Assembly (NCBI GenBank): GCA_017520505.1
Contig: JAFXFN010000018.1
Coordinates: 184,061 to 248,060, forward strand
DNA length: 64,000 bases
Source: Clostridia bacterium
Lineage (GTDB): Bacteria; Bacillota; Clostridia; Oscillospirales; CAG-272
Direction: 5' to 3'
Numbering within the stretch: the first letter of the stretch is position 1; each line of letters starts with the position of its first letter. Both the position numbers and the translations under genes were made by a program. Below are positions 5,231 to 51,794 of this stretch, one piece after another. The notes under the pieces are model-generated. The model saw only the letters and a list, made by a program, of their open reading frames with translations. It was not told the origin of the DNA and did no database searches.

Positions 5231-6167
5231 CAACATTTACAGGCGTACCGTTCTGGTATGCCTTTATATTTTCCGCAACTATATTTATGAGCCTTATACG
5301 TGACTCAAGAGATGCCCACGCAACGTGTGGGGTGATCGTGCAGTTTTTCGCCTTGAGCAAGGGATTTCCCTCTTTCATAGGCTCAACCGTCAGAACATCG
5401 AGCGCCGCACCTGCTATTTTACCGTTATTAAGCGCATCTGCAAGGTCAGCCTCGTTTATGACACCGCCTCGTGACGTGTTAATAAGATACGCTGTGGGCT
5501 TCATCAAGGAAAGCGTTTTTTCAGAAACAATCTCACGGTTGTCAGCCGTCAAGGGAGCGTGAAGTGTAAGATAATCGCTTCTTTTAAAAAGCTCCTCGAC
5601 ACTTACGTATTCATAGTCGTTGTCACGTACGGTTCTTGTGCACGCTATTACGTTCATTCCTAAAACACGTGCGCACTCTGCCACTTTTCTTCCTATAGCA
5701 CCCATTCCGTAAACTCCAAGTGTTTTACCGTAAAGCTCCGTGATAGGATACGGAAAATACGAAAACGCATAAGACTTTATCCATTCACCGCTGTGAGTGG
5801 ATTCGTTGTAGTTATGAAGTGACGTTGCGTGTGAAAGAATAAACGCCATCGTAAGCTGTGCAACAGAATAAGTTGAATAACCGGGAACGTTGACAACAAC
5901 GATTCCCCTTTTTCTTGCTTCATCCGTGGATATATTATTGTAACCCGTTGCAAAAAGCCCGATATATTTGAGATTTTTGCATTTGTCCATAATATCCGCA
6001 TCAATTACAGCCTTGTTGCAAATTAACACCTCGGCATCCTTTGCGGCATCTATAATTTCTTCATGCGGTAAAATATCGTAATAAGACACTTCACCGAGCG
6101 CTTCGATGGGGGAAAAATCAATATCCCCCACCGTAAGCGTACATTTATCAAGCACGGTTATTTTCAT
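5223..6167 (-). CDS. D-isomer-specific 2-hydroxyacid dehydrogenase (glycerate/hydroxypyruvate reductase-like)
   Basis: NAD-binding fingerprint GVYGMGAIGRKVA. Catalytic-domain motifs TSRGGVINEADL and TPHVAW. Confidence 0.8.
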   Translation of the reverse strand: MKITVLDKCTLTVGDIDFSPIEALGEVSYYDILPHEEIIDAAKDAEVLICNKAVIDADIMDKCKNLKYIGLFATGYNNISTDEARKRGIVVVNVPGYSTYSVAQLTMAFILSHATSLHNYNESTHSGEWIKSYAFSYFPYPITELYGKTLGVYGMGAIGRKVAECARVLGMNVIACTRTVRDNDYEYVSVEELFKRSDYLTLHAPLTADNREIVSEKTLSLMKPTAYLINTSRGGVINEADLADALNNGKIAGAALDVLTVEPMKEGNPLLKAKNCTITPHVAWASLESRIRLINIVAENIKAYQNGTPVNVVN

Positions 6168-47905: not shown

Positions 47906-50562
47906 TTTCTTATCCTTCTCTGAACAAATTTAACCGTTTCAACTATCGGTATAACGATTATAGCCAGTGCGAGCGCAACACCGTATTCAGCAAGGCTTAT
48001 GTGTTCAAAGCCGAACGCTGTGCTGATGCCAGGCAGATAAATAACCGCTGTTGTAAGGATAAACGAAAGCAGCATAGCACCGTAAAGGAACAGGTTATGA
48101 GTCTTTATTGAGAAAACGGATGCTTTTACTGAGCGCATATTGAACGAATGGAATATTTCAGCCATTGACATCGTCAAAAATGCCATTGTCATACCGTGAG
48201 AGCTTGTTTCAAGCGACCAGACGCCTGCTTCCATATAATGTCCAACAAGATAGGAAATAACTGTGATAGCGGCAACCATAACGCCCTGATAAACAACGTC
48301 AACACCGACACCGCCTGAGAAGATTCCGTCCTTGGGATTTCTCGGCTTGCGCTTCATAACGTCAGCCTCACCCTTTTCCATACCGAGAGCAAGTGCAGGG
48401 AAACAGTCTGTTATGAGGTTTATCCAAAGCAAATGTATAGGCTTGAGAAGTGTAAAGCCGAGAAGCGTTGCCGTGAAAATTGCCACGACCTCGGAAAGGT
48501 TTGAGGAAAGCAAGAACTGAATAGACTTTCTGATGTTGTCGTATATTCTTCTTCCTTCTCCGACAGCTGTAACTATAGTTGCAAAGTTATCGTCAGCCAA
48601 AACCATATCGGCAACATTCTTTGTAACGTCAGTACCTGTGATACCCATACCGATACCGATATCGGCACTCTTTATTGAAGGCGCATCGTTTACACCGTCG
48701 CCCGTCATTGCGGTTATAAAGCCGCGTGAGCGCCAAGCGTTTACTATCTTGACCTTGTGTTCGGGCTGAACACGTGCATATACAGAATATCTGTCAACGA
48801 TCTTCGCAAATTCTTCGTCGGTATATCCGTCGAGCATAGCGCCTGTGATAGCCTGCGATGCATCTGTGATTATTCCAAGCTCCTTGGCGATCGCCACAGC
48901 TGTGTTTATATGGTCACCTGTTATCATAACAGGACGGACACCTGCTTCCTTACACTGTGCAATAGCTGCCTTTACCTCGGGACGGACAGGGTCTATCATT
49001 CCATAATGACCGATGAATATAAGGTCGTTTTCGTTGTTCTCACAAGTGAGCTCTTCAGGCATTTCATCATACACTCTGTAAGCGCCCGAAAGCACACGCA
49101 AAGCGGAGTCTGCCATAGCCTTATTTTCGCCCGCAACTCTTGCAATTATGTCATCAGTAAGTGGAATAACATTTTCGCCGTCAAGATAATATTTGCAATG
49201 CTTCAGTATTTCATCGGGTGCACCCTTTGTAAACTGAATGTATTTTTCACCGTTTTTGTGAACGGTCGTCATCATTTTTCTGTTGGAATCAAAGGGAAGC
49301 TCGCCAACTCTCGGCATATCAACTTCTATAATTCCCTTTTCAAGTCCGAGCTTATATGCATAATTTACAAGCGCACATTCTGTAGGCTCGCCTGTTGCGT
49401 TCTTGGTTTCATCAAGAACGGCATCGGAGCAAAGCGCCATACATTTTGCAAGGAGCGTGGGATTTTCCGTTACTTCCTTGACAACGGTCATCTTATTCTG
49501 TGTAAGCGTACCCGTTTTGTCAGAGCAGATTATCTGTGTACAACCAAGTGTTTCAACCGCTGTGAGCTGTCTTATAACAGCATTTCTCTTTGACATCTTC
49601 GTAACGCCCATTGAAAGAACGATGGTTACAACTGTCGCAAGACCTTCGGGTATTGCGGCAACCGCAAGAGAAACGGCAACCATAAATGAATCAAGAAGAA
49701 CATCAAGCTTACCGTTCATAAGCTCATTCCAAGCGTTTTCCGTTGTGAAAAATCCGAACAGGAATATGAATATACTGATACCTATAACGAGATATGTCAG
49801 AATTTTTGAAAGCTCCGCAAGCTTCATCTGAAGGGGTGTTTTACCGTCCTTTGCATTTGCAAGCGCATCAGCGATCTTACCCATTTCGGTGTTCATACCG
49901 GTTTCGGTAACGACCGCAACGCCTCTGCCGTATACGACAGTCGAGCCCATATATACCATATTTTTTCTGTCGCCGAGGGGCACATTGTCACAAACAGGAA
50001 GCGCATCCGCTGTCTTGTTAACGGGAACACTTTCACCCGTCAGAGCCGCTTCCTCAGCCTTGAGGCTCGCACTTTCAATAAGTCTTGCATCCGCTGGAAC
50101 GGAGTCGCCTGCTTCGAGGATTATGATATCACCGGGTACAAGCTCATCTGTCTTTACGTGCATCAAAATGCCGTCACGCATTACCTTTGCGTTTGCGGCT
50201 GTCATTTCCTGAAGCGCCTCTATTGCCGCCTCAGCCTTACTTTCCTGAACAACACCGAGGACCGCATTTATGATAACAACGGCACCGATGATGAAAACGT
50301 CGGTAAAGCCTTCGCCGCCCTCACCCTCAACAATGGCAAGAAATGCGGAAACTGCCGCCGCAACAATAAGAATTATTGTCATCGGATCGGCAAGCTGTTT
50401 TAAGAATCTGTGAATGAGAGATTCTTTTTTTGCTTCCTTTAATTTGTTTTTTCCGTACTTTTCAAGTCTTTTCTGTGCCTCGCCTGCCGTAAGACCGCCC
50501 TTTGTACTTTCAAGCGACTTTAACGACTCGTCAGCACTTTTAAAATAATACTGCATTGTCAT
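47902..50562 (-). CDS. P-type IIA cation-transporting ATPase (Ca2+/Mn2+ exporter type)
   Basis: Phosphorylation motif CSDKTGTLT, hinge TGDGVNDAPS, TM4 IPEGL, TGES-like TGESVP. An alternative start lies 6 nt downstream (50556). Confidence 0.9.
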   Translation of the reverse strand: MTMQYYFKSADESLKSLESTKGGLTAGEAQKRLEKYGKNKLKEAKKESLIHRFLKQLADPMTIILIVAAAVSAFLAIVEGEGGEGFTDVFIIGAVVIINAVLGVVQESKAEAAIEALQEMTAANAKVMRDGILMHVKTDELVPGDIIILEAGDSVPADARLIESASLKAEEAALTGESVPVNKTADALPVCDNVPLGDRKNMVYMGSTVVYGRGVAVVTETGMNTEMGKIADALANAKDGKTPLQMKLAELSKILTYLVIGISIFIFLFGFFTTENAWNELMNGKLDVLLDSFMVAVSLAVAAIPEGLATVVTIVLSMGVTKMSKRNAVIRQLTAVETLGCTQIICSDKTGTLTQNKMTVVKEVTENPTLLAKCMALCSDAVLDETKNATGEPTECALVNYAYKLGLEKGIIEVDMPRVGELPFDSNRKMMTTVHKNGEKYIQFTKGAPDEILKHCKYYLDGENVIPLTDDIIARVAGENKAMADSALRVLSGAYRVYDEMPEELTCENNENDLIFIGHYGMIDPVRPEVKAAIAQCKEAGVRPVMITGDHINTAVAIAKELGIITDASQAITGAMLDGYTDEEFAKIVDRYSVYARVQPEHKVKIVNAWRSRGFITAMTGDGVNDAPSIKSADIGIGMGITGTDVTKNVADMVLADDNFATIVTAVGEGRRIYDNIRKSIQFLLSSNLSEVVAIFTATLLGFTLLKPIHLLWINLITDCFPALALGMEKGEADVMKRKPRNPKDGIFSGGVGVDVVYQGVMVAAITVISYLVGHYMEAGVWSLETSSHGMTMAFLTMSMAEIFHSFNMRSVKASVFSIKTHNLFLYGAMLLSFILTTAVIYLPGISTAFGFEHISLAEYGVALALAIIVIPIVETVKFVQRRIRK

Positions 50563-50594
50563 ACCCTTTCACAAATTAATTTGTTATGATATTT

Positions 50595-50710
50595 AAAAAG
50601 ACTCATACATCTTTCAATGTATGAGTCTCATTTTTTAATGATAAACCAAGCTTTCGCCGGAAATGTTGACTTACCAAACGCCGCACGGCGCAAACTACTC
50701 CCTCAAAAAT
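50595..50710 (-). promoter_or_regulatory. Candidate yybP-ykoY (Mn2+) riboswitch with terminator expression platform
   Basis: The minus strand has the ordered blocks GAGGGAGUAG (50706-50697), GUCAACAU, a GAAA-capped hairpin, and UUUAUCA...UGAGAC. GACUCAUACAU (50627-50617) pairs with AUGUAUGAGUC (50610-50600), followed by UUUUU (50599-50595). The element lies directly upstream of a P-type ATPase. Confidence 0.6.
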
Positions 50711-50720
50711 ATTAAATTTT

Positions 50721-50795
50721 TGGAGCTGGTGGAGGGATTTGAACCCTCGGCCTATTGATTACGAATCAATTGCGCTACCCCTGCGCCACACCAGC
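50721..50795 (-). tRNA. tRNA-Thr (anticodon CGU), CCA encoded
   Basis: Manual cloverleaf: acceptor GCTGGTG/CACCAGC, D stem GCGC/GCGC, anticodon stem ATTGA/TCAAT with loop TTCGTAA, T arm GAGGG-TTCAAAT-CCCTC, discriminator T, then CCA. Confidence 0.9.
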
Positions 50796-50805
50796 AAATT
50801 TAGTG

Positions 50806-50833
50806 TTGACAAATTTAAAATACGTGGTATAAT
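50806..50833 (+). promoter_or_regulatory. Near-consensus sigma-A promoter reading toward rsmA
   Basis: TTGACA (50806-50811), 16 nt with TG extension, TATAAT (50828-50833). Confidence 0.6.
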
Positions 50834-50849
50834 CTTTACAACGGAATAA

Positions 50850-50878
50850 ATTATATCATCTTTTTTCAGTTTTGTCAA
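50850..50878 (-). promoter_or_regulatory. Consensus sigma-A promoter reading toward tRNA-Thr, the riboswitch and the ATPase operon
   Basis: Minus strand TTGACA (50878-50873), 17 nt, TATAAT (50855-50850). Confidence 0.65.
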
Positions 50879-50916
50879 TATTATTTCGGAAAATTGTGTA
50901 AAAAACAAGGAGCATT

Positions 50917-51794
50917 ATGCCAAAACTCACAGATATATCATACGTCAAAAAACTGATGGAAGAAAACGGTCTTACATTTTTAAAAAAATACGGTCAGAAT
51001 TTTCTTATTAACGAGAGCGTGCCTTTAAGAACTGCAGAAATGTGTGAGGATGACACATCCTGCGGTGTTATAGAAATAGGTCCCGGAATCGTACACTTAC
51101 CTCAAAGCTTGCCGAAAGATTCAAAAAGGTCGTGGCAATAGAGATCGATACAAGACTTATCCCCGTGCTTGATACGACACTTGCCGAATACGATAATGTA
51201 ACCGTCATAAACGGTGACGTTATGGACTTTGATATAAATGACCTTATAAATGAACATTTCGAGGGAATGGACGTTTGCGTGTGCGCAAATCTTCCCTACT
51301 ACATAACAACACCCATCGTTATGAAGCTTCTGGAATCCTCTGCAAGGCTCAAAAGCATAACCATACTTATACAAAAAGAGGTTGCGGACAGACTTTGCGC
51401 AAAGGCAGGAAGCGCCGAATACGGCGCAATAACGGCATCTGTTGCATATTATGCATAGGCGAAAAAGCTGTTTAACGTATCGGCAGGCTCGTTTATGCCC
51501 GCACCCAAGGTAGATTCCACCGTTGTCAAGCTGTCGCTTTACCCCGAAAAACCCGTAAAGCCGCAAAATGAAGAGCTGATGTTCAAAATAATAAAGGCGG
51601 CATTTTTACAAAGAAGAAAAACACTTTCAAATGCCGTTTCAAACACAGTAGGCATTTCAAAATCAACCGTCGGCGATATTCTTGAAGAAATGAACCTTTC
51701 ACGTGACATAAGAGGCGAAAAGCTTTCTATATCCGAATTTGCACAATTTTCCGACATTTTAATCACGTATATGAAAAATTCCTCCGACACATAA
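50917..51794 (+). pseudogene. rsmA: 16S rRNA (adenine1518/1519-N6)-dimethyltransferase RsmA/KsgA, disrupted by a 1-nt deletion and an in-frame TAG
   Basis: Three collinear ORF fragments carry KsgA sequence. Frame 1 reads ...EIGPGIVHLP...*, while frame 0 from 51090 reads (R)TLTSKLAERFKKVVAIEID. Adding one G at about 51091 restores GPGIGTLT. A TAG at 51456-51458 interrupts ...SVAYYA*AKKLFNVSAGSFMPAPKVDS. Confidence 0.8.

Follow-up and report, generated by a model that had tools for sequence, protein, structure and literature searches.

How is a riboswitch transcribed when a transfer RNA (tRNA) gene occupies the place of its promoter? The question is raised by a stretch of 64,000 nucleotides (nt) of Clostridia bacterium DNA (contig JAFXFN010000018.1), hereafter called the window, in which a candidate Mn2+ riboswitch of the yybP-ykoY class lies on the minus strand between a tRNA-Thr(CGU) gene and the gene of a P-type ATPase. 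Taken as a whole, the locus is very probably best explained by a Mn2+ riboswitch of the three-way-junction type, which acts as an ON switch, has no promoter of its own and is made as the trailer of the tRNA. The blocks of the riboswitch named in a preliminary description of the sequence are all present, on the minus strand and in the order given there (Table 1), and the strong terminator placed just before the ATPase start is confirmed, its 5' arm overlapping the last block of the aptamer. The gap between the tRNA and GAGGGAGUAG, put at about 10 nt, is indeed short, but it amounts to 16 nt counted from the CCA; the first base of helix P1.1 is 13 nt away and the start of the covariance-model match 10 nt.

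Identity and fold of the element

The relatives used for comparison are 80 loci obtained from a genome scan with the ATPase protein as query, mostly from uncultured gut Clostridia. Two of them (L001 and L002) encode ATPases that are 88–89% identical in protein sequence to that of the window, compared to 64–69% for the remaining loci. The leaders are visibly homologous: in most of the 80 loci, GGAGTA precedes the ATPase by 140–260 nt. A first covariance model (R1), whose matches were counted upstream of the ATPase at an expectation value (E) of 0.01 or less, detects the element in 64/80 loci and once in the window. A second model (R2) was built from 53 leaders (alignment A3), the window, L001 and L002 being left out. 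It matches positions 50710-50618 of the window over its full length, with 71.7 bits and an E of 3.4e-16, and gives no second match anywhere in the 64 kilobases (kb).

R2 also finds the aptamer of Escherichia coli mntP (28.7 bits, E 6.8e-6), which is its single significant match in 10 kb. This match spans 5463-5550, compared to 5462-5558 for RF00080, the Rfam model of the yybP-ykoY class, and L1, P2, P3.1, L3 and P3.2 are in register. The clostridial family thereby connects the window with a Mn2+ riboswitch that has been validated.

The best match of the window to an Rfam 15 model other than that of tRNA is to SSRC10 (RF02617), whose full 113 positions align with 50707-50593 (28.6 bits, E 0.0014). 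SSRC10 is a short transcript with a terminator, encoded immediately before the Streptococcus pyogenes gene SPyM3_0440, a "putative calcium transporter" (PMC3675131). Its homologue in S. pneumoniae, SN44, is presented by Martin et al. as a yybP-ykoY riboswitch upstream of mgtA (2019, PMC6649816). According to the description of this subclass in the same paper, the aptamer has an invariant UNAAA instead of P4, which makes the junction three-way, and the terminator follows directly. The 3' side of L1 contains an invariant AGA preceded by a variable base, L3 contains an invariant C and A, and the L3 residues that coordinate the metal in S. pneumoniae are C49 and A50 (PMC6649816).

The element of the window has these characters. 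The sequence between the 3' strands of P3.1 and P1.2 is UUAAA only, which leaves no space for a hairpin; the relatives have UUAAA, UGAAA or GUAAA. On the 5' side of L1, the conserved GGGAGUAG that directly follows the 5' strand of P1.1 is present as GAGGGAGUAG, and GGGAGUA is invariant in the 45 leaders aligned (45/45). On the 3' side of L1 an A and a G, then, past one near-invariant base, a C and a U, are also invariant in 45/45, while the base before them is A, G or C. The CAACA of L3, which carries the invariant C and A of the subclass, is invariant in the same alignment, and all the invariant residues of the family are present in the window aptamer.

The fold is supported by covariation. 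Alignment A1 contains 45 aptamers aligned with MAFFT and was not fitted to any structure; RNAalifold recovers P1.1, P1.2 and P3.1 from it without guidance. For these three helices, 91.9% of the cells are standard pairs, compared to 29–48% when the 3' partners are slid by 1–3 columns, and changes on both sides are seen at 14 of the 16 pairs, in 158 cells. None of 500 shuffles matches the pairing or the covariation score of the real alignment. P2 and P3.2, which are variable hairpins, are not brought into register by MAFFT. Each of them, folded alone, forms in 45/45 sequences, with mean energies of -5.9 and -6.0 kcal/mol, respectively (shuffles: -1.3 and -2.7). In the model-fitted alignment, the five helices are paired in 87.4% of the cells and 24 of the 25 pairs are compensatory; such an alignment leans towards the structure and is given less weight than the unfitted one.

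The order of the blocks had been said to fit the yybP-ykoY consensus, and it does: RF00080 shows GGGGAGUAG and GUCAACAU, and the window carries the same blocks. The proposal of a Mn2+ riboswitch of this class is thus borne out by the covariation, by the leave-out model, by the cross-detection of E. coli mntP and by the linkage to mntP and GDT1 genes described below. The comparison of sequences supports the assignment of the window element to the P4-less, three-way-junction (mgtA-type) subclass of yybP-ykoY riboswitches. As a riboswitch, the element adds a new member from an unannotated lineage to a subclass already known and characterised by experiment.

In seven of the related leaders (L004, L007, L013, L018, L057, L065 and L076), an extra hairpin, AAAAGGGAGUAG...GCAAGACUUUUAC, is found where P4 would be. 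As judged from their sequences, these leaders resemble the canonical yybP-ykoY element with its four-way junction. At the gathering score of RF00080, L004, L007, L013 and L018 go unreported, and L007 does not appear even at E ≤ 10.

Proposed switching mechanism

The arms of the terminator occupy 50628-50617 and 50610-50599, and the stem has an energy of about -18.7 kcal/mol. The 3' strand of P1.1 (CUCAUA, 50625-50620) and the AGA of L1 lie within the 5' arm, which makes aptamer and terminator mutually exclusive. The same overlap of the terminator and P1.1 is found in 56/58 family members. This anatomy points to a transcriptional ON switch, which is the standard logic of the class.

At high Mn2+, the ion would bridge L1 (GGAGUAG...GAGA) and L3 (UCAACA). 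This would dock both helical legs and stabilise the weak P1.1, which would then hold the CUCAUA needed by the terminator, and RNA polymerase would read into the Ca2+/Mn2+ ATPase operon, whose product would export the metal. At low Mn2+, the 12-base-pair (bp) terminator would form instead.

The terminator hairpin is flanked by A6 upstream and U5 downstream (50637-50595), and the plus-strand tail is CATTTTTTAA. It is therefore also scored as a plus-strand terminator and is potentially bidirectional.

Probable transcription of the riboswitch with the tRNA

The region upstream of the aptamer (110 nt) was compared between 62 relatives that lack the tRNA and the three loci that have it (the window, L001 and L002). 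Of the 62 tRNA-less relatives, 57 have a promoter with 9/12 or more consensus matches, usually as TTGACA-17-TAnnnT. In about 46 of those relatives, the -10 element ends 0–19 nt before the model start, which indicates that the aptamer normally begins at the 5' end of the transcript. Only in the window, L001 and L002 does the tRNA stand in the promoter's place, with 10, 13 and 14 nt between the CCA and the model start. The AU-rich spacer differs between the three loci in both sequence and length. In the window (50720-50708), it contains no promoter or terminator match and is too short for either, and there is no terminator between the tRNA and the riboswitch's own terminator. The earlier claim that neither signal separates the two elements therefore stands: no conserved promoter and no terminator is found where most relatives carry a near-consensus promoter.

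The sole convincing promoter lies upstream of the tRNA, as had been proposed; it is the only strong (12/12) minus-strand site in a scan of 50300-51300 and predicts a start at about 50843. It is kept in all three tRNA-bearing loci, TG extension included. The tRNA of L002 shows a compensatory change in the T stem (GAGGG/CCCTC to GGGGG/CCCCC), a sign that selection acts on the tRNA. Since rsmA, the next gene upstream, lies on the opposite strand, no further minus-strand transcription reaches the region. The simplest reading, and the best inference from the sequence, is a single unit consisting of promoter, tRNA-Thr, riboswitch and ATPase operon.

In such a unit, transcription from the promoter at 50878-50850 would yield the riboswitch as a 3' trailer of tRNA-Thr(CGU). 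With no terminator before it, the one of the riboswitch would end the transcript of the tRNA as well. Processing by RNase P and RNase Z had been proposed in the preliminary description. RNase P would take off the 5' leader of about 48 nt (50843-50796), and the tRNA would be released by cleavage within the AU-rich spacer of 13 nt, the likely endonucleolytic site. Because the CCA is encoded, analogy with Bacillus subtilis makes RNase Z an improbable enzyme for the 3' cut; for such a tRNA, an endonuclease followed by trimming by 3' exonucleases is more plausible.

It is quite unlikely that the same Mn2+ riboswitch instead has its own weak promoter in the 3' half of the tRNA, the two being separate units that abut. 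The best promoter-like sites within 110 nt of the aptamer do lie inside the tRNA gene, and that of the window (TTCAAA-16-AAAAAT, 8/12) ends 5 nt before the model start. Its -35 part, TTCAAA, is the T loop and is always there because it is part of the tRNA, while AAAAAT, the -10 part, lies over the CCA. This -10-like hexamer is not conserved, and the best sites of L001 and L002 reach only 6/12 each. The site of the window has no TG extension and is below threshold in the promoter scan, and the other family members use near-consensus promoters. Even if the internal site fired, the tRNA transcript would still enter the riboswitch, since no terminator lies between them.

The predicted terminated transcript is 254 nt long. 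It folds with separate D, anticodon and T arms, P2, P3 and terminator hairpins; the acceptor stem is absent from the minimum-energy fold. In this fold, the 3' end of the tRNA and the spacer (CUCCAAAAAU) pair with P1.1/L1 of the aptamer (AUUUUUGAGGGAG; 50727-50695, minus strand). The pairing would block the aptamer until the tRNA folds or is cut off. A functional role was rejected and the pairing is considered a probable coincidence; the A-run is missing in L002.

The tRNA promoter faces a second one. On the plus strand, TTGACA-16-TATAAT with a TG extension (50806-50833, start at about 50840) points towards rsmA, whose ATG is at 50917, and this rsmA promoter lies within the tRNA leader region. 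Both opposing promoters are of the 12/12 consensus type and are kept in L001 and L002. Mutual interference is likely, because each transcript has to cross the promoter of the other and the polymerase footprints would overlap. The rsmA/ksgA gene (16S rRNA dimethyltransferase, plus strand, 50917-51794) is split into three pieces, 50917-51141, 51132-51458 and 51495-51794, which match profile positions 3-52, 56-155 and 171-254, respectively; the orthologue in L001 is intact (301 amino acids, aa). The split reflects either two frameshifts, in a pseudogene, or indel errors in the assembly.

Nature of the signal

The genes linked to the aptamer in the relatives bear on its ligand. In seven loci (L059, L060, L051, L077, L061, L075 and L070), the aptamer is followed by an mntP gene of about 186 aa (PF02659, 174 bits) and then by the ATPase gene. 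In three Phascolarctobacterium loci, a weaker aptamer-like copy is found on the other strand, before a GDT1/UPF0016 gene (PF01169, 160 bits). Both mntP and GDT1/UPF0016 are established Mn2+ exporter families under yybP-ykoY control, and the position of the aptamer before them supports Mn2+ as the ligand.

Two of these arrangements are unusual in themselves. L070 contains two aptamers, one before mntP (1584-1677, 75.8 bits) and one between mntP and the ATPase gene (2328-2420, 70.2 bits), which gives each gene its own switch. The weaker Phascolarctobacterium copies (L040 2072-2171, L046 1736-1835 and L068 1747-1843, minus strand, 28–33 bits) precede a gene for a Mn2+/Ca2+ antiporter which diverges from the ATPase gene, so that Mn riboswitches stand back to back.

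Martin et al. report that, for the streptococcal homologue, Mn2+ is the best activator in vitro and the sole inducer in vivo, and that Mn2+ causes read-through at an approximately 5-fold lower concentration, and to a greater extent, than Ca2+ (PMC6649816). Gene linkage together with these streptococcal experiments makes Mn2+ the most likely signal. The metal specificity rests on the homologue, and Ca2+ may contribute in vivo.

It is very improbable that the aptamer, though real, responds physiologically to Ca2+, or to Ca2+ together with Mn2+. Such a signal would suit the ATPase, which scores best against models of Ca2+ pumps (TIGR01522, PMR1-type, 638 bits; TIGR01116, SERCA-type, 621 bits, the top NCBIfam matches), and the same paper states that the streptococcal aptamer binds Ca2+ tighter than Mn2+ (PMC6649816). 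It agrees less well with the greater effect of Mn2+ in vitro and its exclusive effect in vivo, with the Mn2+ exporter genes that follow the aptamer in the relatives and with the cross-match of R2 to the E. coli mntP Mn2+ riboswitch.

Weighing of the assignment

Several results weigh against the identification of the locus as a Mn2+ riboswitch in a tRNA trailer. Besides the weak promoter-like site inside the tRNA gene of the window and the tighter binding of Ca2+ in streptococci, they concern the Rfam models, a sequence profile and helix P1.1. The preliminary description had itself proposed RF00080 as a check and the lack of a match as a refutation, and this model gives no match in the window at its gathering score of 45, nor, on 361 nt, even at E ≤ 10. 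The match to SSRC10 remains under the gathering score of that model (56), so that neither curated model reaches its gathering score here. A sequence-only profile of the family gives 5.3 bits against S. pyogenes SSRC10, a score that 1/2000 shuffles exceeds; in this match SSRC10, rebuilt from the published Northern probes, aligns end to end and in the right register. P1.1 is weak in the clade of the window, with one U-U mismatch (UUUGAG/CUCAUA), as expected for a helix that depends on ligand-driven docking of L1 and L3.

The silence of RF00080 can be judged from a positive control. It scores the E. coli mntP leader, an experimentally proven riboswitch, at 41.6 bits, which is under its own gathering score, and for this reason RF00080 was rejected as arbiter. 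About half of its 177 positions form the long 3' P4 region, so that a negative result says little about an element that lacks P4. At the gathering score the model also misses 19 related loci, including L007.

The last alternative, in which there is no riboswitch and a tRNA trailer with its terminator happens to precede an unrelated ATPase gene and to look like yybP-ykoY, would fit the lack of a RF00080 match and the need of the tRNA for a terminator, this being the first one downstream, but it has practically no probability left and is already refuted by the comparative data, namely a structure of 90–100 nt upstream of the ATPase in 64/80 relatives, 62 of them without tRNA, covariation in all five helices, an R2 match at E 3e-16 and the detection of E. 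coli mntP by R2.

On the side of annotation, Rfam 15 misses a large clostridial set of Mn2+ riboswitches (64/80 of the ATPase loci sampled). Rfam also types SSRC10 as "Gene; sRNA", although this RNA is the terminated leader of the Ca2+/Mn2+ ATPase gene of streptococci and corresponds to the three-way-junction Mn2+ riboswitch of PMC6649816; its filing as a small RNA (sRNA) and not as a riboswitch is a curation issue.

Comparison with known systems

The closest described systems are SN44 and SSRC10. Like them, the window element is the leader of a gene for a type II Ca2+/Mn2+ P-type ATPase and consists of P1.1, L1, P1.2, P2 and P3.1-L3-P3.2, with UUAAA for UNAAA; the signature residues (AGA in L1, 3' side; C and A in L3) are likewise shared. 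When reconstructed from the probes of Tesorero et al. (2013, PMC3675131), the SSRC10 of S. pyogenes threads onto the helices of the window. The platform appears to be of the same ON type, with an intrinsic terminator that overlaps the 3' part of the aptamer, as far as the sequence of the window tells. The differences are the host, which belongs to an uncultured gut lineage of Clostridia and not to Streptococcus, and the low sequence identity to SSRC10, reflected in the score given above. Moreover, a promoter and a start site have been mapped for the streptococcal element itself (PMC3675131), whereas in the window a tRNA gene takes the place of such a promoter.

The canonical four-way-junction elements of the RF00080 class (Lactococcus lactis yaoB, E. 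coli mntP, B. subtilis yybP and ykoY) share with the window the consensus blocks of L1 and L3: GGGGAGUAG and GCGUCAACAUAC...UGGC in the RF00080 consensus correspond to GAGGGAGUAG and AAGUCAACAUUU...UUGG in the window. They also share the two-leg fold, the switching helix P1.1 and the association with genes of Mn2+ exporters (mntP, GDT1/UPF0016 and P-type ATPases). The window differs from them by the lack of P4, which results in a three-way junction, and in that RF00080 fails to detect it. Unlike the window, E. coli mntP and alx are controlled through translation or Rho-dependent termination and not by a simple intrinsic terminator (PMC12153347).

A protein gene downstream of tRNAs on one promoter is not new. 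The thrU-tyrU-glyT-thrT-tufB operon of E. coli is a unit in which tRNAs and a messenger RNA (mRNA) are co-transcribed, and the processing of tRNA operons has been described (PMC2190699). In tufB-type units, as in the window, the tRNA would be released by RNase P and by cuts past the CCA. The window differs by the ligand-controlled terminator between tRNA and mRNA; its tRNA would always be made, and its mRNA only with the riboswitch ON.

Both tRNA-mRNA co-transcription and the riboswitch subclass are thus already known. What is new, and apparently undescribed, is their combination, a ligand-gated terminator between a tRNA and an mRNA with an aptamer built from the tRNA trailer. In line with the preliminary description, which knew of no such case, the literature searched with the terms used here gave no description of a tRNA-riboswitch co-transcript.

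Distribution and origin

The layout occurs in a single lineage, in the three species-level genomes to which the window, L001 and L002 belong, and in 0/62 other family members. A metagenome scan for exact matches to the 3' end of tRNA-Thr followed by GAGGGAGTAG within 5–30 nt gave eight loci, none with a tRNA or an aptamer, and these are chance matches.

Two scenarios for the origin were considered. Insertion of a genomic island at the tRNA was rejected: it would leave an attachment (att) site signature, but the window contains no second copy of the tRNA 3' end. For the second, an insertion of the tRNA between an older promoter and the aptamer, the relatives are uninformative as to ancestral synteny: among them rsmA stands next to this region in L001 and L002 alone, and an insertion of the tRNA cannot be told from a deletion that fused two units.

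Possible significance

It is unlikely, if conceivable, that the fusion is functional rather than a neutral capture of a promoter, with the riboswitch and the tRNA regulating each other's biogenesis. If this were true, the Mn2+ status would set the tail of the tRNA precursor, either a compact terminated trailer of 125 nt or a multi-kilobase mRNA, and this tail switch could make maturation of the tRNA 3' end faster or slower. Expression of the pump operon would in turn depend on a strong tRNA promoter, probably under growth-rate or stringent control, and the 5' end of its mRNA would be processed and not triphosphorylated, with altered stability as a consequence.

The locus would also be a natural case of a riboswitch that folds and decides while joined to about 135 nt of upstream RNA, a whole tRNA included, in contrast with the 62 tRNA-less relatives, in which the aptamer lies within a few bases of the 5' end of the transcript. 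Such a layout tests how well a riboswitch is insulated from a neighbouring domain which itself folds strongly. It also raises a question of processing, namely how a CCA-encoding tRNA matures when its trailer is a structured aptamer followed by a terminator. The arrangement is mechanistically unsurprising and limited to one small clade, and the understanding of how Mn2+ riboswitches work is unchanged by these findings.

Layout of the locus

Table 1. Features of the promoter-tRNA-riboswitch-ATPase region, with positions in the window.
Feature	Positions	Strand	Basis
Sigma-70-type promoter TTGACA-17-TATAAT, extended -10 TGaTATAAT	50878-50850	minus	12/12 consensus matches
Predicted 5' leader of tRNA precursor, ~48 nt	50843-50796	minus	inferred from promoter position and tRNA start
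tRNA-Thr(CGU), CCA encoded	50795-50721	minus	ARAGORN; Rfam RF00005, 73 bits
AU-rich 13-nt spacer AAAAUUUAAUAUU, CCA to first P1.1 base	50720-50708	minus	sequence
Mn2+ (yybP-ykoY) aptamer, predicted P4-less three-way-junction form, 88 nt	50707-50620	minus	R2, RNAalifold, SSRC10 match
P1.1, UUUGAG/CUCAUA	50707-50702 / 50625-50620	minus	
L1 block GAGGGAGUAG	50704-50695	minus	
L1 5' side, GGAGUA	50701-50696	minus	
P1.2	50695-50692 / 50633-50630	minus	
P2, GC hairpin CGCCG-UG-CGGCG at 50690-50679	50690-50686 / 50683-50679	minus	
P3.1	50675-50670 / 50645-50640	minus	
Block GUCAACAU	50670-50663	minus	
L3, UCAACA, between P3.1 and P3.2	50669-50664	minus	
P3.2; GAAA-capped hairpin spans 50660-50646	50660-50656 / 50651-50646	minus	
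UUUAUCA	50645-50639	minus	
Junction UUAAA in place of P4	50638-50634	minus	
UGAGAC	50630-50625	minus	
L1 3' side, GAGA	50629-50626	minus	
Intrinsic terminator: 12-bp stem AGACUCAUACAU/AUGUAUGAGUCU, 6-nt loop, U-run to 50595	50628-50595	minus	terminator scan and fold
Type IIA P-type ATPase (PMR1/SERCA-like), 886 aa	50562-47902	minus	open reading frame table, NCBIfam, Pfam domains

The ATG of the ATPase gene, at 50562, is 32 nt past the U-run of the terminator. This gene is the first of a predicted operon with overlapping stops and starts. The downstream genes (47905-45964, minus strand) encode a thioredoxin-reductase-like (TrxB-like) protein of 282 aa, a DUF1653 protein of 73 aa and an AAA_15/ABC-like ATPase of 291 aa. 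These three genes are an unusual cargo for a Mn2+ switch, and they would be under the control of the riboswitch if the four genes form one operon.

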